64,000 nucleotides of DNA from an uncultured bacterium (GCA_965366625.1 CBDUGP010000003.1:50549-114548), one strand, 5' to 3'; counted from the stretch's first letter, positions 7,494 through 58,709 are shown. Translations and numbers: made by a program. Notes: generated by a model from the sequence alone, not told the origin.

Positions 7494-7789
7494 GCGCAGG
7501 GGAAGCTATCGAATCGATCGGCCATCGAGGCCGTTTGGGAAGAGGTCAGACCGGCTTAAGATACGGTCTGGCCTCTTTGCATGTATATAGATATAGAAAA
7601 ACCGAGAAATCCCGTGAGCACCCACGATGTGGATTCGGCAAACGCCGATAAACCTGCAGGTCTCCTTGTTCGCAGATCTTCGATGATCTCATCGAGCTTC
7701 GATCCGACAGGTCCAATACGTTGCCTGGGTGAAATACGAGATAGCTGGGACGAAATCCAAGACGAGAATTGCCCGAGAAGGAGATAAAA

Positions 7790-9933: not shown

Positions 9934-10665
9934 ATGTTGGATCTTCCCAATCGACGGCAAGTTTTTGGCTTCCATCCTGTCCGTGAGCTGCTTCGGCATC
10001 GACCCCAAGAGGTTCTTGAGGTCGTTTGTAGCGCGCAGCGAGGCAAGCGCCGATCCGAGATCGAAGCCCTGTGTGAACGGCACGGTGTTGGGTTCAGGCC
10101 GGTGCCGGCCACTCAGTTGGACCAAATGGCCGCCGGGCAAACCCATAATGGTTTTGTCGCCGCCGCCGCCGAACAAGCATCGGCGACTCCGAATGGGCCG
10201 GATTCAGAGCTTCTAGTTTTGGTCGAGGATATCCAAGATGCTCGAAACCTAGGGGCTTTGCTGCGGGTTTGCGAAGGTGCCGGGGTGGGCAATGTGATGA
10301 TTCGTGATCGAGGCTCCGCTCCATTGACGGCCGGTGCGATCAAGACCTCTGCCGGAGCGGCAGAATGGCAATCCTTCGAACGAATAACCAATTCTTCGCT
10401 GGAGATAGAACGCCTGAAGGCCGAAGGTTTTTGGGTCTACGGGGCGGACGCCGCCGGCAAGCCTCCGTGGGAGATCGAGCTGACGGGCAAGGTGTTGTTC
10501 TGCGTCGGCGGCGAGTCCGGCGGCCTACGGGAGCGGACGCGAAAAAATTGCGACGAGCTGGTGGGTCTGCCCATGCGTGGTCGGGTCGGATCTCTCAACC
10601 TCGCAACCGCAGCCGCTGCGCTGCTCTATGAGGCAATTCGCCAGCGTTCAATCAGCTCCCAATGA
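9934..10665 (+). CDS. rlmB: TrmH/SpoU-family RNA 2'-O-methyltransferase (RlmB-like)
   Basis: SpoU substrate-binding N-domain and SPOUT motifs (LVLVEDIQDARNLGALLR ... GGESGGL ... GSLNLATAAAALLYE). Confidence 0.7.
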   Translation: MLDLPNRRQVFGFHPVRELLRHRPQEVLEVVCSAQRGKRRSEIEALCERHGVGFRPVPATQLDQMAAGQTHNGFVAAAAEQASATPNGPDSELLVLVEDIQDARNLGALLRVCEGAGVGNVMIRDRGSAPLTAGAIKTSAGAAEWQSFERITNSSLEIERLKAEGFWVYGADAAGKPPWEIELTGKVLFCVGGESGGLRERTRKNCDELVGLPMRGRVGSLNLATAAAALLYEAIRQRSISSQ

Positions 10666-11551: not shown

Positions 11552-12736
11552 ATGGCCAAAGAAAAGTTCGAGCGGAATAAGCCGCACGTCAACATCGGTA
11601 CTATTGGTCACGTCGACCACGGAAAGACCACCCTGACCGCTGCGATCACCAAGGTGCTCGCAGACAAAGGTCTGGCTGACTTTACCGCGTTCGACAACAT
11701 CGATAAGGCGCCGGAAGAGCGTGAGCGTGGAATTACGATCGCCACGGCCCATGTGGAGTATGAGACGGAAAACCGTCACTATGCCCACGTGGATTGCCCG
11801 GGCCACGCCGACTACGTGAAGAACATGATCACCGGTGCCGCCCAGATGGACGGCGCGATCCTGGTCGTGTCTGCCGCGGACGGTCCAATGCCGCAGACCC
11901 GCGAGCACATCTTGTTGGCTCGCCAGGTCGGTGTTCCGGCGTTGGTTGTGTTCATGAACAAATGCGACATGGTCGACGATGAGGAGTTGTTGGAGCTGGT
12001 GGAGATGGAGCTGCGTGAGCTGCTGTCGTCTTACGAGTATCCCGGCGACGATATCCCGGTGATTCGCGGCTCGGCGCTCAACGCGCTGAACGGCGAGGGT
12101 GATTGGGACAACAACATCATGGAACTCATGGGTGCAGTCGACGACTACATTCCAGAGCCCGAGCGTGTGTTGGATCAAGACTTCCTGATGCCGATCGAGG
12201 ATATCTTCTCGATTCAGGGTCGCGGTACGGTAGTTACGGGTCGCATCGAACGCGGCATCGTCAAGGTCGGTGAGACGGTCGAAATCGTTGGAATCCGCGA
12301 CACGACGAAAACTACCGTGACCGGCGTCGAGATGTTCCGCAAGTTGCTGGACGAGGGTCGCGCAGGCGACAATGTCGGCATCTTGCTGCGTGGCACGAAG
12401 AAAGACGACGTGGAACGTGGGCAAGTGCTCGCGAAGCCGGGTTCGATCAATCCTCACACGAAGTTCAAGGGCGAGGTGTACGTGCTGACGAAGGAAGAGG
12501 GTGGTCGTCACACTCCGTTCTTCAACGGCTATCGTCCCCAGTTCTATTTCCGCACGACAGATGTGACGGGTTCTTCGGCTTTGCCCGAAGGCACCGAGAT
12601 GGTGATGCCCGGAGACAACGTAAATATGTCGGTGGAGCTGATCGCTCCAATCGCAATGGAGAAGGGTGTTCGCTTCGCCATTCGCGAGGGTGGTCGCACC
12701 ATCGGTGCGGGCACTGTGACCGAGATCGTCGAATAA
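11552..12736 (+). CDS. tuf: elongation factor Tu (copy 1)
   Basis: 394-aa EF-Tu ([22 protein letters not shown]); ATG 11552; protein identical to copy 2 at 28944..30128. Confidence 0.95.
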
Positions 12737-12838
12737 GGTTGACGCCTGAACCTCGACGTTTTTCCCGCTTCCGCGACATGGACGCGGTAAGCACGTGCCC
12801 GAGGGCTCCGATAGGACCTTCGGGCATCCAAGTTATGT

Positions 12839-12914
12839 ACGGCAGTAGCTCAATTGGTAGAGCACCGGTCTCCAAAACCGGCGGTTGCGGGTTCAAGTCC
12901 CTCCTGCCGTGCCA
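12839..12914 (+). tRNA. tRNA-Trp (anticodon CCA)
   Basis: 76-nt ACGGCAGTAGCTCAATTGGTAGAGC...; anticodon loop CTCCAAA; one C-U mismatch in T-stem; classic tuf-tRNATrp-secE-nusG arrangement. Confidence 0.8.
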
Positions 12915-37575: not shown

Positions 37576-37962
37576 ATGAGCAACTCGCACTCAAAGAAGA
37601 TCAAGGCCAAGCGGATGCGTCGTCAACGTGCCCATTTGCGGGTTCGCAATCGGGTGCAAGGTACGGCAGAACGCCCCAGGCTGGCGATATACAAGAGCCT
37701 GCGTTATGTGTATGCCCAGGTCATCGACGATCTGAGCGGCACAACTCTGGCACAGGCGAACTCCCAAGAAGCGGATATCCGCAGTGGCTTGGATGCCTCG
37801 GCAGGCAGCAAAGAAGCTGCCGCCGCGGTCGGCAAGCTGGTGGGAGAGAGAGCCAAAGATAAAGGGGTCGAGCAAGTGGTGTTCGATCGTGGCGGGTTCA
37901 TTTATCACGGTAAAGTGAAAGCGGTGGCAGAAGCCGCCCGCGAAGCTGGACTCAAGTTCTAA
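37576..37962 (+). CDS. rplR: 50S ribosomal protein L18
   Basis: 128-aa L18 ([19 protein letters not shown] ...). Confidence 0.92.
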
Positions 37963-38027
37963 GAATGAAGTGAGGACGGGCATGATCCGTCAAATATGGC
38001 AAGGCGTAGCCTCGAAGGAGAAGCGTT

Positions 38028-38546
38028 GTGGCTAGGGATTTCGATCGCGACCCTGAGTTCGTAGAGCAGGTCGTTCACATCAACCGCGTGACCAAAGTGG
38101 TCAAGGGCGGTAAGAACTTCTCCTTCTCGGCCCTTGTGGTGATTGGTGACCAAAATGGACGGGTTGGTTATGGAACCGGCAAAGCCAAAGAGGTTCCGAT
38201 CGCCATTCGTAAGGGCATTGATGAGGCGAAGAAGAACATGATCCAGGTGCCCATGGACGGATCCACGATCCCCCATGAAACCATTGGAATTTTCAGCGCA
38301 GGAAGAGTGTTGCTGAAACCGGCCTCCCCAGGTACCGGTGTAATTGCCGGCGGCCCGGTCCGTGCGGTGATCGAGGTGGCGGGTATTCAGGACATCCTGA
38401 CGAAGTCCCTGGGTTCCACCAACCCACAGAATGTTGTGAAGGCTACCTTCCAGGGACTCTTGGACCTTCGAGACGAAAATACCATTCGTCGCGAGCGTGG
38501 CCTGCCCCCGATTGAAAAAAGCGAGCCTTCCCCGGCCTCGGCCTGA
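38028..38546 (+). CDS. rpsE: 30S ribosomal protein S5
   Basis: GTG start after GAAGGAG; [27 protein letters not shown] signature. Confidence 0.93.
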
Positions 38547-38583
38547 GGGCGAGTGACCGGAAGCACGCGCGGAGATTAGAACC

Positions 38584-38775
38584 ATGGCGAACGAAAAGAA
38601 AAGCATTCGCATCGAGCAGCACTCAAGCCCGATCGGATATCCAAAGAAGCAACGAGAGCAGCTTCGTGGGCTCGGATTGCGTCGAATTCGGCACGTCGTG
38701 GAGCGGGAGGATACTCCGGCAAACCGCGGCATGGTCAACAAGATCCCGCACTTGGTGCGTATCATCGAGGATTGA
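38584..38775 (+). CDS. rpmD: 50S ribosomal protein L30
   Basis: 63-aa L30 ([30 protein letters not shown]). Confidence 0.9.
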
Positions 38776-38780
38776 AGGTC

Positions 38781-39221
38781 ATGAAGCTGCACGATTTGTC
38801 TCCGGCTAAAGGAAGCACCAAAGCTAAGAAGAGAGTTGGACGTGGACCAGGCTCCGGATTGGGTAAAACCGCCGGACGAGGTCATAACGGTCAACGCTCT
38901 CGGGCGGGTTTCAGCCAACGTTTCGGATTTGAGGGTGGTCAGATGCCCTTGGTTCGTCGAGTGCCGAAAAGAGGTTTTACCAATCTCTTTCGCACCGAAT
39001 ATGCGGTGGTCAACCTGCGAGACCTCGGCCGCGTCGAGGGTGAAGAGATTAATCCCGACAATCTCCAGGCCAACGGTTTGGTTCGTCGCGGGATGTTGGT
39101 CAAAATTCTCGGTGAAGGCGATGTCTCCGGTGCTTTGAAGGTCAAGGCCCACAAATTCAGCAAGTCGGCGCGAGAGAAGATCGAAGCCGCCGGCGGTAGC
39201 TGCGAGGAGTTGGGCTCGTGA
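38781..39221 (+). CDS. rplO: 50S ribosomal protein L15
   Basis: [30 protein letters not shown] signature; ATG 38781 (alternative TTG 38772). Confidence 0.92.
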
Positions 39222-42259: not shown

Positions 42260-42373
42260 ATGAAAGTCCGAGCATCGGTCAAACGAATGTGTTCGAAGTG
42301 CAAAGTCATTCGACGACATGGTGTCGTCCGTGTGATTTGCGAGAACCCAAAGCACAAGCAGCGTCAGGGTTAA
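42260..42373 (+). CDS. rpmJ: 50S ribosomal protein L36 (Zn-ribbon C-x2-C-x12-C-x4-H type)
   Basis: 37-aa [37 protein letters not shown]; below ORF-track length cutoff; found by direct translation between infA and rpsM. Confidence 0.9.
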
Positions 42374-42377
42374 GAAG

Positions 42378-42758
42378 ATGGCACGTATTTCTGGTGTCGA
42401 CCTGCCACCGAACAAACAGGTCTGGATCGGGCTCACTTACATTCACGGCATCGGCCGGACTGTATCCTACGCGATTCTTGAAGCCGCCAAGGTCGATCCC
42501 ACGACCCGGGTGAAGGATCTTACGGAAGACGAGGCCCGTCGTATTCGTCAGGATATCCTGGATAACCATCGTGTCGAAGGTGATTTGCGCAAGGAAGTGA
42601 ACCAGAATATCCGTCGTTTGATGGAGATTGGTTGCTACCGCGGCGTGCGTCATCGTCGAGGCCTGCCGACCCGGGGACAGCGGACCCACACCAACGCGCG
42701 GACTCGCAAGGGACCGAAGCGTGTGCAGGTGACCGGTAAGAAGAAAGTCCGCAAGTAG
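42378..42758 (+). CDS. rpsM: 30S ribosomal protein S13
   Basis: [26 protein letters not shown] signature. Confidence 0.95.
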
Positions 42759-42771
42759 GTAGTGTAGAAAA

Positions 42772-43170
42772 ATGGCAAAAACCAACAAAGAAAAGCGTAG
42801 CGGGAAGAAGAAGGATCGCCGCGTCGTACCCCACGGCGTTGCGTACATCCAGGCTACTTTCAACAACACCTTGGTTTCGGTGGCCGATCCGGAAGGAAAC
42901 GTCATCGCTTGGGCCTCGTCCGGCAAAGCTGGATTTAAGGGCTCACGTAAAGGCACGCCGTTCGCCGCCCAGATGGCTGGTCGAGACGCGGGCATGACGG
43001 CCAAGGAGCGCGGCGTGCGAAGCGTCGACGTGATGGTCAAAGGTCCTGGCGGTGGACGCGAGTCCGCCATCCGCGCGCTTCAAGGCTGTGGCTTGCAAGT
43101 CCAGTCGATCAAAGATTTGACTCCGATTCCGCACAACGGCTGCCGTCCGCGTAAGCGTCGGCGCGTTTGA
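42772..43170 (+). CDS. rpsK: 30S ribosomal protein S11
   Basis: 132-aa S11 ([18 protein letters not shown] ...). Confidence 0.95.
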
Positions 43171-48312: not shown

Positions 48313-51300
48313 TCAAGGGGTGTCAGGGGTGTCTTTCAGCATTGGGTCCTGCAGCAAATCCCGGGAACAGTCCGGGCACACGCCATGGGTGAAGGCGGCC
48401 TCGGAATGTTGATCTATATATTGTTCGATGTCTTCCCAATACCCCTCGTCATCACGGATCTTCTTGCAGCATGAACAGATCGGGAGAAGACCGCCCAACA
48501 CTTTGATTTGGGAAAGTTTCTCTTGTACCTGGGCTGCCATTCGCCGATACGCGAAGACCAGCTCGAGATGGGGGCGAAGGCGCGTGACGAGTTCATGGTG
48601 GCCGATGGGTTTGGGCAGGTAGTCGTTGGCACCCAGTGCCAAGCCTTTCTGGGTGTCCTCCGCCTTGGTCTTGGCACTGAGAAAGATGATCGGCAACTGC
48701 CAGAATGAGAATTTGGATCGTAGCTCCCGACAGACTTCATATCCTGAAACTTCGGGCATCATGATGTCCAGCAGCACCAGATCGAATTCTTGTTTTGCGA
48801 TTACGTCCAGGGCCTCCTTGCCGTGGGTGGCACTGGTGACCCGGAAGTCGAAAATGGAGAGGTAGCTGGTCAGAATCAGCAAATTGGTGGGCTCATCATC
48901 GACGGCGAGAATTCGTGCGTGTTTTGCCTCTTCGGAGAGCTGGAGATCGGCAAAAGAATTAGAGCCCATCTGTCGGTTTCGCGATTCCTGCAGCGGTCGA
49001 ACATTGAAGGTTTCTAGGCGCCTTTGCGCAGCAGCGGCGAGGTGCGAGCGTGGCGGCATTTGATCGGCGAGAGTCCCGGCTCTCGATGGCTCTGAGCGAG
49101 CTGTTTGCTCTCTTTGGCCTGAATACACTGGAATCTCGAAGGCAAAAGTCGAGCCTTGTCCCGGACTCGAAGTGACGGCCAAAGAACTGCCGTGCAGCTG
49201 GACGAGGCGATTTGCGATCGTCAACCCCAATCCGGTGCCGCTGTGGGAGCGGATGTCAGAGCCGTCGGCCTGCTCGAAAGCCTGAAGTATTCGCTCAACT
49301 TCTGAGGTTGCGATGCCTACTCCAGAGTCACTGATCTCGATCCGCAACCGTGGGCTCGGGAGGCAAGTCTCATCAGACCCTTGAGTTTGCTTGGGCTTCG
49401 GGCTGGTGGGAGTTGTCGTCGACTGGACCCGAACCTGAACAAAACCGGCATCGGTGAACTTGATTCCGTTCTCCACTAGGTTGAAAACGACTTGGAAGAG
49501 TCGATTTTCGTCCGCGAAAATCGGTGGCAGGTCTTGGGGCACCTCCGTGGTTAAGTGCAGTCCTTTTTGTTGAGCTGCAGGACGGGTCAGGGCCACGACC
49601 TCCTCCAGAATCGATTCCAGTCGACATTGTCTCGGATGAAGCCGGAAGCCATCGTGGCGAATGTTCGAAAAATCGAGAACAGCTTCGACTAAACGGCTGA
49701 GACGATGACCACTGGCGGCGATCATGGAGAGGTCGAGCAGGGCTTCGGCGTGGATCGGCCCGCGCATGCCGTCGATCAACCCCTCTGCCAAGCCGGTGAT
49801 GCCGTAGAGAGGAGTTCTGAGTTCATGGGAGGTGTTGGCAATGAATTCGTCTTTTTGGCGTTCTGCTGCCCGTAGCCTTTGATTGATGGAGCGCTCTCGG
49901 TTGTATCTTTGCTGAGACCAATAGAGCGACGCTGCAACAAGAGCGAGTACAAGAATCGAGTAAAGGCCGTAGGCGGCTGGGCTTCGCCATGGTGCTGGGG
50001 CGACCAGGATCGCCATCGTCGCTGCCTCCTCACTCCAGACCCCATCCGGGCTTCGGGCTTTAACTTGGAATCGGTAACGACCGGGATCGATGTTGGTGTA
50101 GCGGGCTGACCTGTGCTCGGCATCGGTTTCGATCCAGTGCTCGTCGAACCCTTCCAGTCGATAGAGGAATCGGACCTTTTTGGGGTTGGCGAAGTGGAGA
50201 GCGGTAAAGCCGATCTCAAAGGTCCTGTGAAGATGGTTGAGGGCCAAGCTTTCGGTGCCGGAGAGGGCGTGTTGAAGGGGCGAGCCCGGCACACCGATCT
50301 CAACGGGAGCGCCGTTTAGGAGTAGGTGGGTCAGCACGATGGCCGGTGGATGAGGGCTAAATCGAAGATTGCTCGGATCGAAGTAGGTCAATCCACGGTT
50401 GCCCCCGAAGATCATCTCCCCGGTGCTGGACCTCAAGGCAGTTCCGGTAAAAAACACATTGTTGTGGAGACCGTCTTCGATATCGAAGTTGTGAAAAACT
50501 CCGGCTTCAGGATCGAAATGGCTGATTCCGTGCTGAGTGCTGAGCCACAGAGTTGATCTGTCGTCTTCGAGCACTCCGGCGATGGTGCCGCTCGGCAATC
50601 CCTCTCCGACGTTCCAACGTTGGATCTTAGTGTCGTCTTCGCCCCGCTTGCGGATTAATCCGCCGTCGCGCAGGCCGATCCAGAGGTCATTCCTGCTGTC
50701 TTGGTAGAGGGAGAAGACTTCGTCTTGGATATCCGACAAATTTGCCGCCGGCCGGCGAATCCGAAGATCGCGGTCGAGGATCCTCAAACCGCGCGTGGTA
50801 CCGATCCAAATCCTGTCTTTGTGGTCGAGGCTGAGAGCCAGAATTTGACCGGTTTCGAATCGCCGCCGCTCCCTGCCGCTGTCGTCGAGCAGGGAAAGGC
50901 CCGCGAGACTGCCCATCCACAGTCTGTCTTCAGGGTCTTCGATCAGAACTCGGATTCCCTTGGGAGCGGTTGGGCTGAGGTCGGTCGGAGACAGCTGTGC
51001 GGTGATCTGGTCGAATTGGAATAGGCCTTGGGCCGCACCCAACCAGAGCTTCTTGCGACTACGATCAAAGAAAATTGCTTTGATCGAGGTAATGGGGCCA
51101 TCGTCGTCGCTGAGAGGAAAGCGCTCGAATGCTTGACTGGCTGGATGCCAAACGGTTAGCCAGTCGTTGCCGGCGATCCACCAGCGACCGTCAGGCGTCT
51201 CACCGAGCGCGCTGACGTTGGCACTGGCCAAGCCCCAGCGCGAGTCGAGGCTGCGGCGCAAAGTCCTAAATTGCTGCCGATCGAGATCAGTGAGATCCAG

Positions 51301-52335
51301 GCCGTTGCGGGTGCAGGACCAGAGAATGCCGGAGCGGTCGATGTACAGACCGTAGACAGACTTGCTGCTGGGGCCGGTGGGATCCCCATCTCGCATTTCC
51401 ACATGCTGGGCCGAATCCGGCTCCTCGCCGGAAATTGCACCGACCATACGGGCCAGACCTTCTGAGTTGCTGCCGATCCAGAGGTCGTCTCCGTGGCTCA
51501 TCAGGCTGTGAATGTCACCATTTATCGGGCGGGCGTAGAGACGGAATAGGGGAGGCCCTCGGCCCGGGGCAGTGGACCGATAGAGAGAGCCGTTAAAGGA
51601 CCCTATCCACAGATTGCCGAGCGGATCTCGATAGCTGATGGTGGGTCGGTTCTTTTCTCTGGAGAGGCCGGCTGTGTTCCCATGAAGAAAGGGAGAATCG
51701 ATGGATTCTGTGGCGGAGGTGGTTGGGTCGAAAATAAAAAGGCGCCCGTCGGAGGTGGCGAGCAGCAATCCGCTGTCTAAGGCTTCCAAAGTCAGCGGTT
51801 GGAAAGTGGGGAGGGCTACATCTTCGCTACCGAGATCCACCGTGATCGATTCGAAGCGGCGAGCTTGGCGGTTGAGCCGAAGAAGACCTCGATCCGTCAG
51901 GGCCCACAGATCCGACCCAAGCTCACGGAAACGGATGCCGTCGGGAGACAAGCTCAGCGAAAGCGGGATGCGTTCGAATCGTTCGAGCGCAGGGTCGTAG
52001 CGGTTGAGGCCGCGGTTCCTGGACGCGAGCCACAATGAGCCGTTCCGATCTTCGAACGCTCCAAAAGTCTCGTTGGCGCTGACGGTCGTCGGGTCTGCTG
52101 GATCGTGGGCAAAGGTCGTCAGGTGAGAGCCGTCAAAACGCTGTAGCCCACCCTCGGTGCTTATCCAAATGAAACCCTGTCGGTCCTGGGTCAAGTTCCA
52201 GACGGTGCTGTGGGCGAGCCCGTCGTCAGTGCTCAGGTGTCTGAATTGGAGGAATTCGGCTGCTGCGCTGGAGGTCGATACCAGGCAGAGTAAACTCAGA
52301 AAAGCGATGCGGTTTCGTTTGACTTGGTGTCCCAC
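48313..52335 (-). CDS. hybrid sensor histidine kinase/response regulator with periplasmic beta-propeller sensor and Cys-rich C-terminal module
   Basis: signal peptide; repeated propeller/Y_Y_Y-like repeats; TM; HisKA (SHELRTPL) and HATPase (GTGLGLTIANRLV); REC (ILAVDDEPTN ... DLVLLDIMMP ... LSAK); C-terminal LPICSCCKKIRDDEGYW ... HGVCPDC. Confidence 0.8.
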   Translation of the reverse strand: MGHQVKRNRIAFLSLLCLVSTSSAAAEFLQFRHLSTDDGLAHSTVWNLTQDRQGFIWISTEGGLQRFDGSHLTTFAHDPADPTTVSANETFGAFEDRNGSLWLASRNRGLNRYDPALERFERIPLSLSLSPDGIRFRELGSDLWALTDRGLLRLNRQARRFESITVDLGSEDVALPTFQPLTLEALDSGLLLATSDGRLFIFDPTTSATESIDSPFLHGNTAGLSREKNRPTISYRDPLGNLWIGSFNGSLYRSTAPGRGPPLFRLYARPINGDIHSLMSHGDDLWIGSNSEGLARMVGAISGEEPDSAQHVEMRDGDPTGPSSKSVYGLYIDRSGILWSCTRNGLDLTDLDRQQFRTLRRSLDSRWGLASANVSALGETPDGRWWIAGNDWLTVWHPASQAFERFPLSDDDGPITSIKAIFFDRSRKKLWLGAAQGLFQFDQITAQLSPTDLSPTAPKGIRVLIEDPEDRLWMGSLAGLSLLDDSGRERRRFETGQILALSLDHKDRIWIGTTRGLRILDRDLRIRRPAANLSDIQDEVFSLYQDSRNDLWIGLRDGGLIRKRGEDDTKIQRWNVGEGLPSGTIAGVLEDDRSTLWLSTQHGISHFDPEAGVFHNFDIEDGLHNNVFFTGTALRSSTGEMIFGGNRGLTYFDPSNLRFSPHPPAIVLTHLLLNGAPVEIGVPGSPLQHALSGTESLALNHLHRTFEIGFTALHFANPKKVRFLYRLEGFDEHWIETDAEHRSARYTNIDPGRYRFQVKARSPDGVWSEEAATMAILVAPAPWRSPAAYGLYSILVLALVAASLYWSQQRYNRERSINQRLRAAERQKDEFIANTSHELRTPLYGITGLAEGLIDGMRGPIHAEALLDLSMIAASGHRLSRLVEAVLDFSNIRHDGFRLHPRQCRLESILEEVVALTRPAAQQKGLHLTTEVPQDLPPIFADENRLFQVVFNLVENGIKFTDAGFVQVRVQSTTTPTSPKPKQTQGSDETCLPSPRLRIEISDSGVGIATSEVERILQAFEQADGSDIRSHSGTGLGLTIANRLVQLHGSSLAVTSSPGQGSTFAFEIPVYSGQREQTARSEPSRAGTLADQMPPRSHLAAAAQRRLETFNVRPLQESRNRQMGSNSFADLQLSEEAKHARILAVDDEPTNLLILTSYLSIFDFRVTSATHGKEALDVIAKQEFDLVLLDIMMPEVSGYEVCRELRSKFSFWQLPIIFLSAKTKAEDTQKGLALGANDYLPKPIGHHELVTRLRPHLELVFAYRRMAAQVQEKLSQIKVLGGLLPICSCCKKIRDDEGYWEDIEQYIDQHSEAAFTHGVCPDCSRDLLQDPMLKDTPDTP

Positions 52336-52400: not shown

Positions 52401-52751
52401 TTAATCGTCAGATTCGGCAAATGAGGTAATGGCGTCGCCTTCGCTCTGATAGACGTCCAGCAACGGTAACAACTGTGATAGCTCCAGGATGCGCAAGACT
52501 TGACCCTTGACGTTCAGCAATCGGGCATCACAACCAAAGCGCCGGGCAAGCTTCACGGAAGCCATCAGCTCGCCGATTCCTGCGCTGTCGATCTTGCTGA
52601 CTTTCGAGAGATTCAGGAGAATTTTCTTCCAATCGTCGGCAACCAGCTGGTTCATCGCCTCTTGGAGCACGGTGTCGCCGATACCGGCCGTCAGGCGGCC
52701 TGTCATGTCGAGGATGATGACGTCCTCAACCTTTCTTAAATCGATTTCCAT
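52401..52751 (-). CDS. STAS-domain protein (anti-sigma factor antagonist-like)
   Basis: 116-aa SpoIIAA-like fold (VIILDMTGRL ... LSKVSKIDSAGIGEL ... LNVKGQVLRILEL). Confidence 0.75.
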   Translation of the reverse strand: MEIDLRKVEDVIILDMTGRLTAGIGDTVLQEAMNQLVADDWKKILLNLSKVSKIDSAGIGELMASVKLARRFGCDARLLNVKGQVLRILELSQLLPLLDVYQSEGDAITSFAESDD

Positions 52752-52851: not shown

Positions 52852-54027
52852 TCATAACATGTCGGGGGCACTCAATTCTTCGGCTGTCAAGGAGCAACCA
52901 CGCAGCTGGGCGTCGGTCGCACGGCCTAGGAGGAAGAATCCCGTAGCATCTTTCTCGCTGCGGGGGCTGTCCAAGATGCCGAGATCTTGGGTGATCACAT
53001 GAATCGCGGATCCCACGTTGCTGAGATCGAAGAAAGAAACCAGCCCGGGCTCACCCGCAGGCACCTCGGTCAAAGTTTCGGGCTCCAGCATCCGGACGCG
53101 CATGAACGGCGGTACGACGAAGCGATCCGGATGGCCTCCGCGCAAGACGTCCGTGTAGAAGTGGCCGGTCAGCTCGGTCATGCCGTATTCGCGGACAACT
53201 GCTTCAGAGGGTAGGCCCAACAGCCGATGGACGCGCCCCAGCAGTTCTTCTCTTTGAAGCTCCCGAACTCGGCCTTTAAATCCACCGGTTTCGAAAAGGG
53301 TCGATCCGAGAGGCAGCTCTTTCTTCAGACCGGAGGATTCGAGGGCTTCGAGCCAATAAGACAGCGCAAAAGCTGTGGTCAGCACGGTCCCGGGGCGGCC
53401 CCTCAAGCCGTCGACCCAACCATTTGCCGCGTCGGGGTCGAGGCCTGCATTTCCCAAGGCGACCACCGAGTCGGGGGCCCCGAATTGATTCAAAATGTGC
53501 TCACACATGAAACCCAAGCTCGAATCGGGCACCGTAGTCCGGGACGGCACGAGTGAGAGCATGGGACGGCGGCCGGGAGCGCGGTCGGCCGGCAGGCAGG
53601 CGTCGGCGAAGGTGGCGTCGATAACCTGTCGATAGAGCGCAGGGAAGGGGTGATAATGCACGCTCCGCTCTTGTTGACCGCCGGTGGTTCCGCTAGATCG
53701 GAAGATTTCCCGGGCCTCGGCCGCGTGGAGTTTTTGGTGACGAAATGCCATCACCGGCACCGCCGGAATCCGGGTCCAATCGAACGGGTCTAGGGACTCG
53801 GGAGTGATTCCCCGATGATCACAGAGGCGCTGAAAAGGAAGGACTCGTTGGTATTGGAAAGCGAACACGTCACGGGCCAATGCGTCAAAAGACCCTTCAC
53901 TTCGGGTGATGAAAGCCGAAACGCGTTGTACGAGCTGCTCAGATTCGCGGACTCCGAACTCAGAGTGAGCAGAAGATGGGGTTGGTTTCATCCCGCCATT
54001 TTGACGACTGTGAGCCTGAGTCGACAA
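52852..54027 (-). CDS. adenylate-forming enzyme, LuxE acyl-protein synthetase/PaaK-like (ANL superfamily)
   Basis: FRSSGTTGG (A3-like motif lacking the usual Lys) and EYGMTE (A5 motif); ~390 aa, LuxE-size. Confidence 0.45.
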   Translation of the reverse strand: MSTQAHSRQNGGMKPTPSSAHSEFGVRESEQLVQRVSAFITRSEGSFDALARDVFAFQYQRVLPFQRLCDHRGITPESLDPFDWTRIPAVPVMAFRHQKLHAAEAREIFRSSGTTGGQQERSVHYHPFPALYRQVIDATFADACLPADRAPGRRPMLSLVPSRTTVPDSSLGFMCEHILNQFGAPDSVVALGNAGLDPDAANGWVDGLRGRPGTVLTTAFALSYWLEALESSGLKKELPLGSTLFETGGFKGRVRELQREELLGRVHRLLGLPSEAVVREYGMTELTGHFYTDVLRGGHPDRFVVPPFMRVRMLEPETLTEVPAGEPGLVSFFDLSNVGSAIHVITQDLGILDSPRSEKDATGFFLLGRATDAQLRGCSLTAEELSAPDML

Positions 54028-54182: not shown

Positions 54183-54197
54183 CGGGGAGTGATCGGA

Positions 54198-56837
54198 ATG
54201 GCCAAGCAATCCAAGGCGAAGAAATTAACCCCGGGCGTTCCGGCCCAGGGCGGTGCCCAAACCGCCAAAAAGCCGAGAGGCTCGGGAGCGGTCAAGCTGG
54301 CGCTGATGCTCGTGCTTTTGGTGGCCTTGGTGGCAGGGGTCATCGCCGGAAGCACCACTTGGGCCACCGCGACCGCAAGGGCGGAAACCGCCGGTAAGGC
54401 CATCGATAAGATTCTTAACGGCAGCAACAGGGCTCTCTCGATTCTCCAGCGGCAGCGCTATCTACGACTGAACCTGATTTCCCGTATTTTTCGGACGGAT
54501 CAGGTGCTGACCTCGTATTTAGTTGCCGCCGCCCAGGCCCGAGACGAGGCCGCAATCTTGGCATCGGTGGAGGAATACCAAGACCTACTGACTTTTGATT
54601 TGGCGGTGGTGCTGGATCGCAACGGCGTGGTTTTAACCCGCACCGACGATCGGTCAGCGAGTGGCGAGGACTTGGCCGCGACCCCGTTGGTGGCCGTCGC
54701 CCTCGAAGAGAGCAAGGCGTCAGGGGTGTGGCAGCAGAATGACCAGCTCTACAATGCGCTCGCCGAGCCGCTAGTGCGCCAATTCGAGCTCGTGGGATAT
54801 ATCGCCGTCGCTTATTCAATCAACAACACCCTAGCGGCTGATATCAAGCGCACGGGCGGCGCGGAGATTGTTTTCCTTGCCGAATCTGGGGTTGGGCCTG
54901 CACCTGTCGCGTCGACCCTCGATGACGGCATGTCGCAGGAGCTTGTGGAGGCACTTCGAAAACAAGGGGATGTGCTCGGTTTGGTGATGGAGGAGGGGGA
55001 TGTCGTCGACCGGGTCGAGCTGGAGTTCGGTGGTGAAAAGTGGACGGCGTCCTTGGCACCGTTGAGGGATGCCGCAGGCGGCTCGGTGGGAGCTGCCATT
55101 GCCCTGACTTCCTTGGGTGACACCCGGCAAAGCTTCAACAACATCCAGAAGGCCACTTTGGTCGCGGGCGGACTCTCTCTCCTGGTGGGAGCCATTTTGG
55201 CGTTCGCCTTGGCCAAATGGGTTTACCGGCCCTTTACTCGCCTGGCCGACGCCGTAACCCAAGGGGTCCAAGGCCATTGGGATGTCCAAATGCCGACCGG
55301 CAGTGGGGACGCCAAACGCATCTCGGAAGCGGTGAGAGATCTCTTCACCCAGCTCAGGGAGAAGGCCGCGGTGGAATTCGTGGTCGGCCGGGTGTCTCGG
55401 CTGCTGCCCGAACCCGCGAAAGAGAGCGCTCAAGGCGTGGCTAAGGCCCAGCATCTTTGTGTGGTCGGGGTTGAGATGCGCCGCTACGCCGATCCTAAGG
55501 TCGGCTACGACGCCGAGGAGAATATGGCCCGTCTGGATCGTGACGTCCAAAAGATTTCCACCTCCACGCGCACCCAAAAAGGTGAGGTGGTGTCGATGTT
55601 CGGGCATCGAGTTTTGCTCAGCTTCGAAGGTGAGCATTGCACCTGGCGGGCCCTGTGCGCGGCCACCGAGATCATGCTCACCCTGTCGGAACGGGACAGC
55701 GTGTTCGACGAACCCAGCCCGCCGGTGGTTGCCCTTTCTAGTGGCCCGATGATCAACGGCACCATCTCGTCCGGCCTGGTGGTGGCGGGTGTTCCGGTTC
55801 AGATTCTCGAAAGCTTGATGCGTGAGGCGTCACCCGGCGGGCTTTACTTCTCGAAACAGGTTTATGCGGAGTTGGGCGAACTCTTCCAGCGGGCTCAGGT
55901 GCAAGTGAAGGGGCAGCGGGGAATCCTCAGTCCGCAACCTCTGTATCTGGTCGACGCCGAATCGGCGAGTCGAATGACCGGAGTCCAAGCCTTGACCGAC
56001 GGTGGGGACGGAGGCGAGGGACGAGGTCTTTCAGATCTGCGGCGCGGTGTGCTGCTGGCGGGTCGCTTCGACATGCTCGACGAGCTGGGCGCGGGTCGGA
56101 TGGGAATTGTTTGGAAGGCCCAAGATCGCGACTTGGGCGATTTGGTCAGTCTCAAGATGCTGCGTCCGGAAGTGATGCAAGACGCCGCGCTCTTCGAACG
56201 GTTGAAGAGGGCGGTGGCCAAGGCGCGCTCGATCCGCCACCCCAACGTCTTGAGCGTCTTGGATTTCGGCGAGGCCGAGCGCCTGCCGTATATCGAAATG
56301 GAATTTGCCCGCGGATTCACATTGGCCTATCTCCTGGAGCAAGCACGCCAAGTGCCGGTGGTGGCCGGGGTCCGATTCGCGCGCGAAATCGCCCGTGGGC
56401 TGGCCGCCGCCCACAATCAGCAGCTCATGCACAGCGGGCTCAAACCGGAGAACATCCTAATCGACACCTTGGGTTTGGTGAAGGTGATGGACTTTGGTCT
56501 GGGTATGCCGGTAAGAGCCGGGGCCGCCGTGGAAGCGCCTGGATACCTCGCTCCCGAGCAGCTGGAGGCGCGCGAGCCCGATTCCCGCGCCGATTTCTTC
56601 AGCTTTGGGGCGGTGGTGTATTCCATGTTGACCGGAAAACTGCCTTACCCGGGGTCCACCTCGGACGAGATCCGTCGCAAGATGGCCGAAGGCGGTCCTG
56701 AGGTCCCCACCTCACTAGTGGCTGAGATCCCACCCAAACTGGAAGAGATTCTCTTGAAATGCCTCCAGATCACACCGGACCAACGATACGCGTCGGCCGA
56801 CGAACTCGTGGCGGATTTGGAAGACATCTCCATCTAG
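54198..56837 (+). CDS. membrane receptor: extracytoplasmic sensor-TM-HAMP-degenerate cyclase-homology domain-Ser/Thr pseudokinase
   Basis: two TM segments flanking ~300-aa sensor; cyclase-like motifs with catalytic residues substituted (GEVVSMFG, VQILESLMREASPGGLYFS); kinase domain with GxGxxG, VSLK, DFG, APE but HRD replaced by HSG (MHSGLKPEN); alternative GTG start 54189. Confidence 0.7.
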   Translation: MAKQSKAKKLTPGVPAQGGAQTAKKPRGSGAVKLALMLVLLVALVAGVIAGSTTWATATARAETAGKAIDKILNGSNRALSILQRQRYLRLNLISRIFRTDQVLTSYLVAAAQARDEAAILASVEEYQDLLTFDLAVVLDRNGVVLTRTDDRSASGEDLAATPLVAVALEESKASGVWQQNDQLYNALAEPLVRQFELVGYIAVAYSINNTLAADIKRTGGAEIVFLAESGVGPAPVASTLDDGMSQELVEALRKQGDVLGLVMEEGDVVDRVELEFGGEKWTASLAPLRDAAGGSVGAAIALTSLGDTRQSFNNIQKATLVAGGLSLLVGAILAFALAKWVYRPFTRLADAVTQGVQGHWDVQMPTGSGDAKRISEAVRDLFTQLREKAAVEFVVGRVSRLLPEPAKESAQGVAKAQHLCVVGVEMRRYADPKVGYDAEENMARLDRDVQKISTSTRTQKGEVVSMFGHRVLLSFEGEHCTWRALCAATEIMLTLSERDSVFDEPSPPVVALSSGPMINGTISSGLVVAGVPVQILESLMREASPGGLYFSKQVYAELGELFQRAQVQVKGQRGILSPQPLYLVDAESASRMTGVQALTDGGDGGEGRGLSDLRRGVLLAGRFDMLDELGAGRMGIVWKAQDRDLGDLVSLKMLRPEVMQDAALFERLKRAVAKARSIRHPNVLSVLDFGEAERLPYIEMEFARGFTLAYLLEQARQVPVVAGVRFAREIARGLAAAHNQQLMHSGLKPENILIDTLGLVKVMDFGLGMPVRAGAAVEAPGYLAPEQLEAREPDSRADFFSFGAVVYSMLTGKLPYPGSTSDEIRRKMAEGGPEVPTSLVAEIPPKLEEILLKCLQITPDQRYASADELVADLEDISI

Positions 56838-56945
56838 CCGGTTGAAGGTAGACGGGAGCGTGTCGCCTGCGACGCGCGCAAGCCATCGACGAGAAATTTC
56901 AATTTTTTCGCGCAGGAAATTCCACGTCTAAGTGTTTCAAGAGCT

Positions 56946-57557
56946 GTGACGCAGTCTGCCGAAGTCCTGCCGGACCCCGACCTCCCGATTTTGCTTCGCG
57001 TTGCCGATGGGGACGTGGAGTCGTTCGGTGTGTTGGTGGAACGTCATCAGGCGAGGCTGTGGCGATTGTGCGAGCGAATGTTGGGCAGCGCTGAGGACGC
57101 CAGTGAGGCGACCCAAGAAGTCTTCCTCAAGGCCTACCGTGGCTGCTCCGCCTTTCGCCCGACCGCCAAGGTGTATACGTGGCTCTATCGGATCGCCGTC
57201 AACCATTGTTTAAACCGCTTGCGGCGCCGAAAGTTGGCGAGCTTCCTCTCGTTGGCGGAGCTGGCACCGGCAGCCAAGGGCGACGATGGAACAGGCGACC
57301 ACCGCAGAGAGGCGGAATGGGATCCGGCGGACTCCGGACCCGACGCGGAGCGTCGCCTAGCGGACCGTCGACGTTGGGCTGTAGTGAGAGCGGCGATCGA
57401 TCGCCTGCCGGTGAATCAACGGGCGGTTTTGGTCTTGGCGAAGCTCGAAGGGTTGTCCTATCGGGAGATTTCCCAGGCCTTGGGCATCACGGAGAGCGCG
57501 GTAGAAAGCCGGTTGGTGCGTGCCATGCGCCGGTTGCACGCCCTCGAAACTCAGTAA
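56946..57557 (+). CDS. ECF (group IV) RNA polymerase sigma factor
   Basis: sigma-70 region 2 (EATQEVFLKAYRG ... VYTWLYRIAVNHCLNRLRRRK) and region 4 (NQRAVLVLAKLEGLSYREISQALGITESAVESRLVRAMRRL). Confidence 0.85.
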   Translation: MTQSAEVLPDPDLPILLRVADGDVESFGVLVERHQARLWRLCERMLGSAEDASEATQEVFLKAYRGCSAFRPTAKVYTWLYRIAVNHCLNRLRRRKLASFLSLAELAPAAKGDDGTGDHRREAEWDPADSGPDAERRLADRRRWAVVRAAIDRLPVNQRAVLVLAKLEGLSYREISQALGITESAVESRLVRAMRRLHALETQ

Positions 57558-57567
57558 GGGGTTGGAC

Positions 57568-58086
57568 ATGACCGTTAGAGATCAAGAGCCGGCACAGCTG
57601 ATGCGCTATTTGGCCGGTGAACTCGACGAGCCGGCTCGACGGCAACTCGAGCAGCGGCTCGAAAGCGAAACTCGGCTGCGTGATGCCCTAGGAAGATTGG
57701 AAACCACGTGGGCCGCACTTTCACCGCCGAGCCCCGAGTCGGAAGCGCCCGATCAAACCCTTGCGATCATGGCGAAGATTCGGCGCGAAAGCGCCCAGGT
57801 CGGCGGTGAACTCGCTTGGTCTGCGGCCCCGATGTGGGTCAAAACGGGATCTTTGGCCTCGCTTGCCGCCGGTTTGTTGATCGGCGTGTTCATAGCTCCA
57901 GAGCATGCGACGAGCCTAGATCCTGGCCGCTCGGGGATAGTGGAACCGCCGTGGGGCTTCGAGGCCGAGCGGCTTTCGACAGACGACCTCTTTCAAACGG
58001 CGGAGCCGACCTCAGCGGATCTATATTGGCGAGCTCTGGAAGCCTCCAGCGGCCGATTGGATGAAGAGCAGGAGGACGGATCGTGA
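57568..58086 (+). CDS. putative anti-sigma factor (single TM)
   Basis: immediately downstream/overlapping ECF sigma; short cytoplasmic N-domain, TM (LASLAAGLLIGVFI), small extracytoplasmic domain. Confidence 0.55.
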   Translation: MTVRDQEPAQLMRYLAGELDEPARRQLEQRLESETRLRDALGRLETTWAALSPPSPESEAPDQTLAIMAKIRRESAQVGGELAWSAAPMWVKTGSLASLAAGLLIGVFIAPEHATSLDPGRSGIVEPPWGFEAERLSTDDLFQTAEPTSADLYWRALEASSGRLDEEQEDGS

Positions 58087-58709
58087 GCCGTCAGATGGTG
58101 AATAAGCGATGGGGGTTGGTTTGGGTGCTGATGCTGTCGGTGGGTCTCAATTTCGGCTTGCTGGTCAGCTGGATGGTCGCGAAATCCAGGAGCGAACACA
58201 CGGATCCGGCAGTTGAGCAAACCGAAGGTGATCCGGGTCATGGATCTGAGGGCGTCGCCGGGACCTTGCAAAGATCGGATCTCGGCATAGCACCCAGGCG
58301 CCTGGAACGTATCGTCGGCCGGATGGCCGATGAGTTGGGATTGGAGGGTGAGAGAAGAGAGGTCTTCTTGGGCGTCCAAGGAGAATTTTTTCATCGATCC
58401 GTGGCGGGACGAGATCGTCTCAAAGCAGCCCGGGCCGGGTTGCGAAGGGAGTTGACTGCATCGTCGCCCGATCGAGCTCGGGCGGAGCATTGGGCTGGGG
58501 AGCTGGGAAAGGCTCAGTCGGAGCTGGAGGAGGCCTTTGTCGCCAATTACTTTTCCACCCGCGAGCTGTTGGATCCGGAGCAAGACAGGAGATTTCGCCG
58601 ATTCATGGGCAGAATCCACAAGATGCGTCGCCAGCTGATGGAGCAGGGCGAGACGCCCAGGGAACCGTTCCGTCCTAGACGACCCAGGCGAGGCAGACCT
58701 AGGGGATGA
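58083..58709 (+). CDS. Spy/CpxP-family (LTXXQ-like) periplasmic stress protein
   Basis: signal/TM then helical protein with LDPEQDRRF (LTXXQ-like) motifs and basic C-terminus; co-operonic with ECF sigma/anti-sigma. Confidence 0.5.
   Translation: MSRQMVNKRWGLVWVLMLSVGLNFGLLVSWMVAKSRSEHTDPAVEQTEGDPGHGSEGVAGTLQRSDLGIAPRRLERIVGRMADELGLEGERREVFLGVQGEFFHRSVAGRDRLKAARAGLRRELTASSPDRARAEHWAGELGKAQSELEEAFVANYFSTRELLDPEQDRRFRRFMGRIHKMRRQLMEQGETPREPFRPRRPRRGRPRG

Follow-up and report, generated by a model that had tools for sequence, protein, structure and literature searches.

A conserved bacterial receptor family that joins a degenerate class III cyclase-homology domain to a predicted pseudokinase and is often encoded beside sigma-factor genes

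This report concerns a membrane receptor gene located in a stretch of 64,000 nucleotides from an uncultured bacterium (GCA_965366625.1 CBDUGP010000003.1:50549-114548), which we refer to as the window and in which all positions are counted from the first letter. The gene begins with an ATG codon at 54198, with an in-frame GTG three codons upstream at 54189, and its product of 879 amino acid residues (aa) is a 100% match to the metagenomic protein P0001. From the N-terminus the product contains a first transmembrane segment (TM1), a dCache_3 domain, a second transmembrane segment (TM2), a HAMP-like linker, a degenerate cyclase-homology domain and a pseudokinase (Table 1). The full-length AlphaFold model, with a predicted local distance difference test score (pLDDT) of 85, has the same domain order with two globular domains after the linker. 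An earlier reading of this DNA, here called the original prediction, described the gene as coding for an 880-aa receptor in which a sensor and a HAMP-like linker are followed by cyclase-like and kinase-like domains. That order is borne out by Pfam, by a family profile and by the model; the reading frame itself also stands, with a length of 879 aa. An extracellular cytoplasmic function (ECF) type sigma factor gene lies downstream on the same strand, and divergently transcribed genes lie upstream.

Table 1. Positions of the receptor gene, its domains and diagnostic residues, and the neighbouring genes in the window
Feature	Position	Strand	Evidence
Receptor gene, 879 aa plus stop	54198..56837	+	Open reading frame (ORF) list; identical to database protein P0001; full-length AlphaFold model
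TM1, residues ~32-54	54291..54359	+	Kyte-Doolittle; start of long helix in model
dCache_3, predicted periplasmic double Cache sensor, residues 103-298	54504..55091	+	Pfam PF14827
TM2, residues ~318-343	55149..55226	+	Kyte-Doolittle; continuous helix 306-357 in model
HAMP-like linker, residues 344-400	55227..55397	+	PF00672 matches of orthologs; model helices
Degenerate class III cyclase-homology domain, residues 416-594	55443..55979	+	Family profile and AlphaFold model
E426, first metal-binding Asp position	55473..55475	+	Aligned to Asp of LTSDLRGFT in 2w01
G469-H470-R471 replacing GDG, second metal Asp = His	55602..55610	+	Aligned to GDG of 2w01
Conserved loop SERDSVFDEPSPPV, consensus SERENVFDEPEPP, within cyclase-like domain	55686..55727	+	Family alignments
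Q535 and S539, transition-state Asn/Arg positions	55800..55814	+	Aligned to VNLTYR of 2w01
Hanks-type pseudokinase, residues 626-870	56073..56807	+	Pfam Pkinase; PknB structures
K653, beta3 (VAIK) Lys kept	56154..56156	+	Aligned to PknB K40
A672, alphaC Glu lost	56211..56213	+	PknB RFRREAQ versus RLKRAVA; PknB E59
H745-S746-G747 replacing HRD, catalytic Asp lost	56430..56438	+	PknB IIHRDVKPAN versus LMHSGLKPEN
DFG kept	56490..56498	+	PknB alignment
Two-block motif CGCAGGA-N14-GTGTTTCA upstream of sigma gene, candidate promoter	56911..56939	+	Cross-locus conservation
ECF sigma factor	56946..57557	+	Sigma70_r2 and r4_2, E 4e-18 each; TIGR02937 102 bits, above cut-off
Single-pass anti-sigma-like protein, ATG 57568 (listed ORF from GTG 57520)	57568..58086	+	NF052375
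208-aa protein (p208), N-terminal hydrophobic segment and Metal_resist (Spy/CpxP-like)	58083..58709	+	PF13801
LuxE-like acyl-protein synthetase, divergent from receptor	52852..54027	-	PF04443 E 2e-15; LuxE 7xc6 E 7e-12
SpoIIAA-like STAS protein (anti-sigma-factor antagonist homolog)	52401..52751	-	Pfam STAS E 4e-15
Hybrid histidine kinase, 1340 aa (Reg_prop/Y_Y_Y propeller, HisKA, HATPase_c, receiver)	48313-52335	-	Pfam

Relatives of the receptor were collected at two depths. A word-indexed search yielded 46 full-length orthologs at 32-100% identity, 44 of which were aligned; those bearing organism names come from metagenome-assembled genomes of Acidobacteriota and are annotated only as 'protein kinase'. 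An exhaustive search with a profile of the cyclase-like domain yielded 184 representatives of 50%-identity clusters at E<=1e-10, most of them 850-900 aa long with the cyclase-like domain equally placed. Residues were then counted across an alignment of 131 full-length relatives, the named members of which all belong to Thermoanaerobaculia/Acidobacteriota.

The dCache_3 match in the window protein (E 2.8e-7; 30.8 bits against a gathering score of 25.7) is repeated in 43 of the 44 aligned orthologs, and the model forms two alpha/beta modules in this region. The extracytoplasmic sensor proposed between TM1 and TM2 is therefore present, at a length of about 265 aa and not the ~300 aa first suggested. 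The HAMP-like linker gives no Pfam HAMP match at E<=1 in the window protein. However, PF00672 is matched in 32/44 orthologs (best E 1e-10), and the model of the linker consists of a helix that runs to residue 357, a connector and a second helix at 371-400.

Pfam and NCBIfam report nothing between the HAMP-like linker and the kinase, either in the window protein or in any of the 44 orthologs, and PF00211 (Guanylate_cyc) in particular is not matched at E<=1 by the window protein or at E<=0.1 by any ortholog. A different result is obtained when residues 396-598 of 24 family members are combined into a profile. Among solved structures this profile best matches the cyclase Cya2 (2w01, E 6.4e-10), followed by a phytochrome-cyclase fusion (6fht, 7e-9), photoactivated cyclases (~1e-4) and CyaC, CyaB and Rv1625c (0.005-0.13); up to E 1, class III cyclases make up nearly all of its matches. 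Modelled in isolation with AlphaFold, the domain has a pLDDT of 87 and a predicted template modelling score of 0.84, and the best 50 Foldseek matches to this model are all class III cyclases, including the structures 9bcs and 9bcv of the GC-A intracellular domain. By sequence similarity and by a predicted fold with the beta-alpha-beta-beta-alpha-beta core, residues 416-594 are thus assigned to the class III nucleotidyl cyclase superfamily. The cyclase fold that the original prediction read from mutated hallmark motifs is detected by the family profile and the structure model where Pfam alone is silent, and standard domain annotation overlooks a whole class of degenerate cyclase domains. As a side observation, one relative that is 50% identical (P0122) carries the JGI/IMG name 'class 3 adenylate cyclase/tRNA A-37 threonylcarbamoyl transferase component Bud32', so COG-based annotation picks up the cyclase similarity that Pfam misses.

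Alignment with 2w01 locates the catalytic positions of the cyclase-like domain and agrees with the claim that its hallmark motifs are altered. The first metal position, E426, is still acidic (Glu or Asp) in 128/131 relatives. The second metal position is H470, and here His is found in 110 of the 131 relatives and Asp in a single one; within the 44 orthologs G469 and R471 are invariant and H470 is present in at least 90%. The transition-state Asn position is occupied by Q535, as it is by Gln in 93/131 relatives, and position 539 holds Ser in 70/131 and Arg in only 16/131. The purine-specifying position, four residues before the GDG Asp, carries Glu in 2w01 and is occupied by S466 in the window protein, and the ortholog consensus has Ala there. 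With metal, transition-state and purine positions replaced, canonical two-metal cyclisation is not expected. This degenerate condition is present in essentially all 131 relatives, including those with a canonical kinase. The domain also contains the loop SERENVFDEPEPP, which is near-invariant in members whose kinase resembles that of the window protein and is gapped in many relatives with a canonical kinase, although it does occur in some of the latter (L017 and L019-L021).

The kinase-like domain is readily recognized by Pfam (Pkinase, E 2e-38; 132.7 bits against a cut-off of 31.7), and its nearest solved structures are Mycobacterium tuberculosis PknB (E 3e-36), Staphylococcus aureus PknB, PknA and StkP. 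All of the kinase motifs quoted in the original prediction are present: LGAGRMG at 630-636, VSLK at 650-653, MHSGLKPENIL at 744-754, DFG at 765-767 and APE at 785-787. In the alignment with M. tuberculosis PknB, residues K653, N752 and D765 correspond to K40, N143 and D156, and the beta3 Lys is present in 109/131 relatives. PknB R137-D138 corresponds to S746-G747, which confirms the proposed loss of the HRD Asp, as D138 is aligned with G747. The same alignment identifies a second loss that the earlier reading does not contain, namely replacement of the alphaC Glu by Ala672. Additionally, the activation loop that follows DFG is about 8 residues shorter than that of PknB and contains no Ser or Thr, and the activation segment lacks the G-T of the P+1 motif G-T-x-x-Y-x-APE, whereas canonical relatives keep GTPxYxAPE. 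The field defines a pseudokinase as a kinase-like domain from which any of the beta3 Lys, the HRD Asp or the DFG Asp is absent (PMC12599244), and by this definition the missing HRD Asp makes the domain a pseudokinase. Were nucleotide binding still under selection, the G-loop, Lys, Asn and DFG would be expected to be retained, as they are here.

These substitutions are not peculiar to the window protein. In 42/44 aligned orthologs there is an H-x-[G/A/S]-L-K-P-E-N motif, and the alphaC Glu is replaced by a residue that is hydrophobic or small; all 42 orthologs down to ~43% identity carry H-x-[G/A/S] in place of HRD. Across the 131 relatives the kinase exists in several states. It is fully canonical, with Lys, Glu, HRD, DFG and a long loop with GTPxYxAPE, in 38 of them; it resembles that of the window protein in 66, where Lys and DFG are kept and Glu and Asp are both gone; and it is further degraded in ~20, where Lys or DFG has also been lost. 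The alphaC position is Glu in 38/38 canonical members and a residue other than Glu in 66/66 members of the pseudokinase group. A few members are intermediate (for example, HLD without the alphaC Glu), and both canonical and non-canonical kinase members are found in Thermoanaerobaculia.

The distribution of conservation along the protein also differs between groups. In the pseudokinase group of 66 members, mean pairwise identity is 50% in the cyclase-like domain, 45% in the pseudokinase, 42% in dCache and 32% in HAMP, while the corresponding values in canonical-kinase members are 57% in the kinase, 50% in HAMP, 33% in dCache and 28% in the cyclase-like domain; because the groups are of unequal depth, the values can be read only as rankings inside each group. 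These rankings show a pseudokinase that is still constrained and a cyclase-like domain that is relatively much more constrained once the kinase is dead. Comparison of the groups further identifies conserved features of the pseudokinase group that include an NPK motif, the SERENVFDEPEPP loop and a QRGxLSPQP segment in the cyclase-like domain, as well as changes in the HAMP DE motif. Such strong conservation across a clade is indicative of function and not of decay. Loss of catalytic residues from two domains at once might bring to mind a copy in decay, akin to a pseudogene, or an artefact of annotation, but both can be dismissed given an intact frame of 879 codons, the 46 full-length orthologs and 184 cluster representatives, the high-confidence models and the strongly conserved family-specific motifs.

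The simplest history of the family would be that the ancestral receptor kinase already had a non-catalytic cyclase module and that kinase catalysis was then lost in a large subclade. The survey of orthologs thus answers a concern raised with the original prediction, that this copy had been pseudogenised recently, as both the HSG-type motif and the degenerate cyclase motifs are conserved. Relatives with intact residues do exist, although for the kinase only and in distant paralogous members at <=38% identity; an intact cyclase site occurs in none of the 131. The description of a receptor with two inactive domains holds in that both lack the residues that define catalysis in their families, but its symmetry was overstated, since the cyclase loss is family-wide and the kinase loss appears to have come later. 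The family consequently offers a natural series of canonical, partly degraded and fully degraded kinases in one receptor architecture with the same non-catalytic cyclase domain. Such a series allows one to ask what a receptor kinase gains on ceasing to be a kinase.

One answer may lie in the neighbouring genes. The ECF sigma and anti-sigma pair reported next to the receptor is indeed immediately downstream, separated from it by 109 bp, and 170 bp separate the receptor from the divergent LuxE-like gene. Only the generic sigma70-ECF superfamily scores above cut-off when the sigma factor is compared with NCBIfam, and its translated region 2 contains an ordinary SAED segment. The assignment of the anti-sigma-like protein is based on a match to NF052375 that is below cut-off (E 8e-8) and on a weak zf-HC2 match, and the PF13801 match of p208 (E 2e-5) is under the gathering score. 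By analogy with CpxP, p208 could act in the periplasm to modulate either the anti-sigma factor or the Cache domain of the receptor. On the other side, the STAS protein aligns with Bacillus subtilis SpoIIAA at E 2e-10, with DSAG opposite the phosphorylated DSSG, and the genes for the hybrid histidine kinase, the LuxE-like protein and the STAS protein appear to form an operon.

Neighbours were scored with tblastn, local profile searches and gene calls at 24 loci: the window itself, the 18 distinct loci represented by 20 genome hits, and 5 loci from metagenomes. The genes for the sigma factor, anti-sigma factor and p208, always as a unit, are directly downstream of the receptor gene in 13/24 loci. 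The anti-sigma gene comes after the sigma gene in every locus that reaches far enough, and p208 is the third gene in 12 of the 13 sigma loci, which are all those with sequence available beyond the anti-sigma gene. On the upstream side of the receptor gene, STAS is present in 10/24 loci and LuxE in 14/24; the latter include loci with a canonical kinase, and LuxE is therefore a less informative neighbour. The trio and/or STAS is present at 17/19 loci with a non-canonical kinase versus 0/5 loci with a canonical one, for which a hypergeometric estimate that ignores shared ancestry is ~5e-4. Moreover, the trio persists at loci where the upstream side differs (L006, L008 and L010), and STAS persists where the downstream side differs (L002, L024 and L025). 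We rejected a strict relation of the sigma or STAS neighbours to a missing HRD Asp, as L022 has HRD together with the trio, and HLD occurs in L012 and L014 with neither neighbour present. Because of these exceptions we state the association as one between canonical and non-canonical kinases. The shift of neighbours, from none or a gene with an FHA domain to sigma/anti-sigma and anti-anti-sigma genes, points to a concrete and testable answer as to what was gained when the kinase was lost.

The sigma operon has a conserved motif of its own. The consensus CGCAAGA-N14-GGGTTTCA is located 20-90 nt upstream of the sigma gene in 12/13 sigma-carrying loci, these being the window and L001 (copy at 10633), L003 (copies at 7742 and 8422), L005, L006 (11543), L007 (11474), L008 (11491), L010 (11562), L011 (copies at 2781 and 3479), L013 (5019), L016 and L022 (1227). 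Spacing between the two blocks is 14 nt in every copy upstream of the sigma gene, and a second copy between the sigma and anti-sigma genes is present in L003 (N14) and L011 (N15). The motif is unlike the customary GGAAC/CGT promoter of ECF factors, and it may be the sigma factor's own target promoter or the site of another regulator. It is absent upstream of the receptor, LuxE and STAS genes. A classical ECF promoter (GGAAC-N16-17-CGT) was not seen by eye in the 109-bp gap before the sigma gene, and no intrinsic terminator is predicted between the receptor and sigma genes, so read-through from the former into the latter is possible.

We consider it probable, at roughly 60%, that the window protein is a non-catalytic receptor with a pseudokinase of the ATP-binding type that feeds into the control of a sigma factor. 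The periplasmic double-Cache domain would sense a ligand, and the signal would pass through TM2 and the HAMP-like linker into the cyclase-homology domain. The receptor is presumably dimeric, because HAMP and cyclase-homology domains are obligate dimers, and the cyclase-like domain would then serve as a dimeric transducer or platform whose former active-site pocket is possibly kept as a ligand site. The signal would end at the C-terminal Hanks-type domain, which has kept its nucleotide-binding residues and has lost both the catalytic base and the Lys-Glu salt bridge, a combination suggestive of an ATP-binding pseudokinase whose role is conformational switching or docking and not phosphotransfer. 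The output would be exerted on sigma-factor activity by way of the ECF sigma/anti-sigma/Spy-like trio and/or the SpoIIAA-like STAS protein. It is the gene neighbourhood that points to the scaffolding or allosteric role and to the link with ECF signalling suggested by the original prediction. A more specific and rather speculative version, which we regard as improbable in its details, is that the pseudokinase is a ligand-controlled docking switch that captures or releases STAS and/or the cytoplasmic domain of the anti-sigma factor with no phosphotransfer, in place of the GHKL anti-sigma kinases of partner switching, and that the Glu/His-Arg/Gln site of the cyclase-like domain could be a second, intracellular nucleotide input. 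If this version is true, then in the clade with non-canonical kinases a sensor would be wired to sigma-factor control in a new manner, by a dead cyclase dimer and an ATP-binding pseudokinase.

Several observations weigh against the main scheme. Absence of catalysis is a prediction from motifs, and some kinases that lack canonical residues keep weak or alternative activity. ATP binding is suggested by the retained Lys, Asn and DFG, and loss of the alphaC Glu could weaken such binding. The link to sigma and STAS is one of gene order within one bacterial class where synteny is partly inherited; the trio is missing from 6/19 non-canonical loci and STAS from 9/19, and correlation with loss of the Asp is imperfect given the state of L022 and of L012 and L014. 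GHKL anti-sigma kinases and PP2C phosphatases, which are the usual partners of STAS proteins, were not found in a Pfam scan of a subset of the ORFs between 38 and 64 kb. Finally, as the motif of the sigma operon is absent before the receptor gene, the receptor is not evidently a member of that regulon.

The alternative that survives best, and one we hold as possible if tentative, shifts the emphasis from the kinase-like to the cyclase-like domain. The pocket of the latter might bind a nucleotide or second messenger, or catalyse another reaction, and this domain might be the real regulatory or output module with the pseudokinase being secondary. A pocket of this type would be lined by the Glu/Asp of metal site A, the invariant His-Arg, Arg428/Arg429, Lys434 and Gln535. 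Consistent with this possibility, the cyclase-like domain is the most conserved domain of the pseudokinase group, and its former active-site positions are near-invariant and not random. There are also precedents, as 6yii is the crystal structure of an ATP-binding, class III cyclase-like protein and the catalytic domain of receptor guanylyl cyclases has an allosteric ATP site (PMC7615481). However, the His/Gln pattern is shared by active-kinase members, in which this domain is far less conserved (28%).

We think it unlikely that the receptor is unrelated to the ECF sigma factor, with an adjacency that is simply inherited and a true partner that is either an active Hanks kinase encoded at another place, in an allosteric heterodimer in the manner of HER3 and EGFR, or the products of the LuxE-STAS-histidine-kinase genes. 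This explanation would account for the non-canonical loci that lack the trio and for the separate motif upstream of the sigma operon. It also draws on LuxE being the commonest neighbour, found beside canonical-kinase members as well, and on further Ser/Thr kinase genes within 10 kb at several loci. What it does not readily explain is that the trio and STAS each stay in place while the opposite side changes, or that none of the five canonical-kinase loci has either of them. Furthermore, receptors at the different loci are only 30-60% identical, a distance at which neutral synteny would usually have eroded.

Doubtful, and in our view less credible still, is the proposal that the kinase-like domain remains active as an atypical kinase or ATP-dependent transferase in which other residues make up for the lost HRD Asp and alphaC Glu, and that it modifies a neighbour such as STAS at its conserved Ser. 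Conservation of the G-loop, beta3 Lys, catalytic-loop Asn, DFG Asp and APE within the clade is what handling of Mg-ATP would give, and the STAS neighbour does keep a Ser that is aligned with the phosphorylated Ser of SpoIIAA. M. tuberculosis PknD reportedly phosphorylates an anti-anti-sigma homolog. Bacterial pseudokinases with new chemistries are also known, for example SidJ and SelO (PMC12599244). Against such activity stands the joint loss of two independent catalytic elements in 66 relatives, along with the short activation loop of the window protein, from which the GT-x-x-Y-x-APE segment and any Ser or Thr have been lost. In addition, the Asp is replaced by Gly, Ala or Ser with no conserved substitute acidic residue evident from the group comparison, and Lys and DFG have subsequently disappeared from other members, as is expected once catalysis is dispensable.

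A non-catalytic receptor that signals through an ATP-binding pseudokinase has its closest functional analogy, which is not one of membership, in the receptor guanylyl cyclases of animals, where a pseudokinase domain binds ATP and allosterically regulates a cyclase domain on the same chain (PMC7615481). Like GC-A and GC-C, the receptor described here carries on one polypeptide a ligand-binding extracellular domain and a membrane span, together with both a pseudokinase and a class III cyclase-homology domain. Unlike them, its cyclase-like domain precedes the kinase-like domain and its sensor is a bacterial dCache with HAMP; moreover, since the cyclase-like domain lacks catalytic residues, enzymatic output of any kind is not expected. 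It likewise departs from class III cyclases that are linked to TM-HAMP or other sensors (Rv1625c, CyaB, Cya2 and CyaC) in that the second metal, transition-state and purine residues are replaced, PF00211 is not matched and a kinase-like domain follows. That a class III cyclase fold can be kept for binding alone is indicated by the crystallised 6yii, titled as a class III adenylyl cyclase-like ATP-binding protein (Pseudomonas aeruginosa, in the context of a transcriptional regulator). Other non-catalytic sites of this type are the pseudo-symmetric sites of mammalian adenylyl cyclase and of soluble guanylyl cyclase, which are heterodimers that retain one active site.

Bacterial Ser/Thr pseudokinases have been catalogued yet are almost unstudied. 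The catalogued families are ActPs1-3, GLW, CP1, DYD and DLHK, to which EssB/YukC and MviN can be added (PMC12599244). The family described here shares with them a Hanks-type fold, losses in the catalytic triad, family-wide conservation and, in several cases, membrane association (PMC12599244). In all seven catalogued families the VAIK Lys is substituted (bioRxiv 10.1101/2025.01.12.632604), whereas here Lys and DFG are kept and the HRD Asp and alphaC Glu are lost, which sets the receptor apart by published motifs. Eukaryotic pseudokinases that bind ATP likewise retain nucleotide-binding residues and have lost the catalytic base and the Lys-Glu clamp. Both PMC12599244 and bioRxiv 10.1101/2025.01.12.632604 are without the words cyclase, Cache, HAMP, sigma and Acidobacteria, and our literature search returned nothing specific on this architecture or on bacterial fusions of a pseudo-cyclase with a pseudokinase. 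The family nonetheless combines known kinds (a bacterial pseudokinase, a non-catalytic cyclase domain and a Cache/HAMP receptor) and is not a new category.

Sigma factors have been linked to Hanks-type kinases in several ECF groups, namely ECF43 (EcfP/PknT and EcfK/PknS), ECF59-62, 217, 267 and 283, and in these kinase-associated systems an active kinase phosphorylates the sigma factor (PMC7826278, PMC13147305). The window resembles ECF43 systems in that a gene for a transmembrane protein with a Hanks-type kinase fold adjoins an ECF sigma gene; it differs from them in that the kinase domain lacks the catalytic base and in that a single-pass anti-sigma-like gene follows the sigma gene. To our knowledge, kinase-regulated ECF systems typically have no anti-sigma factor. 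The STAS protein keeps the position of the phosphorylatable Ser, as in the SpoIIAA/SpoIIAB and RsbV/RsbW modules. Unlike in those modules, its only nearby kinase-like partner is the Hanks-type pseudokinase, with GHKL kinase and PP2C genes lacking from the ORFs scanned.

Other features of these loci are of a more incidental nature. An anti-phage kinase system (PD-T4-6, MADS or BREX PglW) was considered for the receptor and rejected, as PADLOC and NCBIfam matches are limited to the generic kinase domain, the NCBIfam scores are far under curated cut-offs and the neighbours are without any PADLOC match. Beside the canonical relative P0047 (L023) there is an FHA-domain gene two genes downstream (11973-12860, + strand), followed by one for a PAS-GGDEF-EAL protein. 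The FHA neighbour is a typical context for a reader of phospho-Thr, unlike the sigma-related neighbours of pseudokinase members. At L020 (3455-8023, - strand), beside another canonical-kinase member, a LuxE-like gene is ~1.4 kb from a gene for LuxC (acyl-CoA reductase), which suggests a fatty-acid-reductase-like pair; LuxC has no match among the scanned ORFs of the window. The C-terminal ~60 residues of the hybrid histidine kinase are Cys-rich (ICSCCKKIRDDEGYWEDIEQYIDQHSEAAFTHGVCPDC), give no Pfam match at E<=0.001 and possibly form an output module that binds metal.

The wider setting is that of an ordinary chromosome, with genes for SecY, adenylate kinase, methionine aminopeptidase and RpoA at 39-45 kb. 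Two ORFs that adjoin this cluster (37959-39152, - strand, 397 aa; 42306-43070, - strand, 254 aa) have no Pfam match at E<=0.001 and may be spurious antisense ORFs of GC-rich DNA. Upstream there are genes for a penicillin-binding protein, for RNase H and for the large hybrid histidine kinase.

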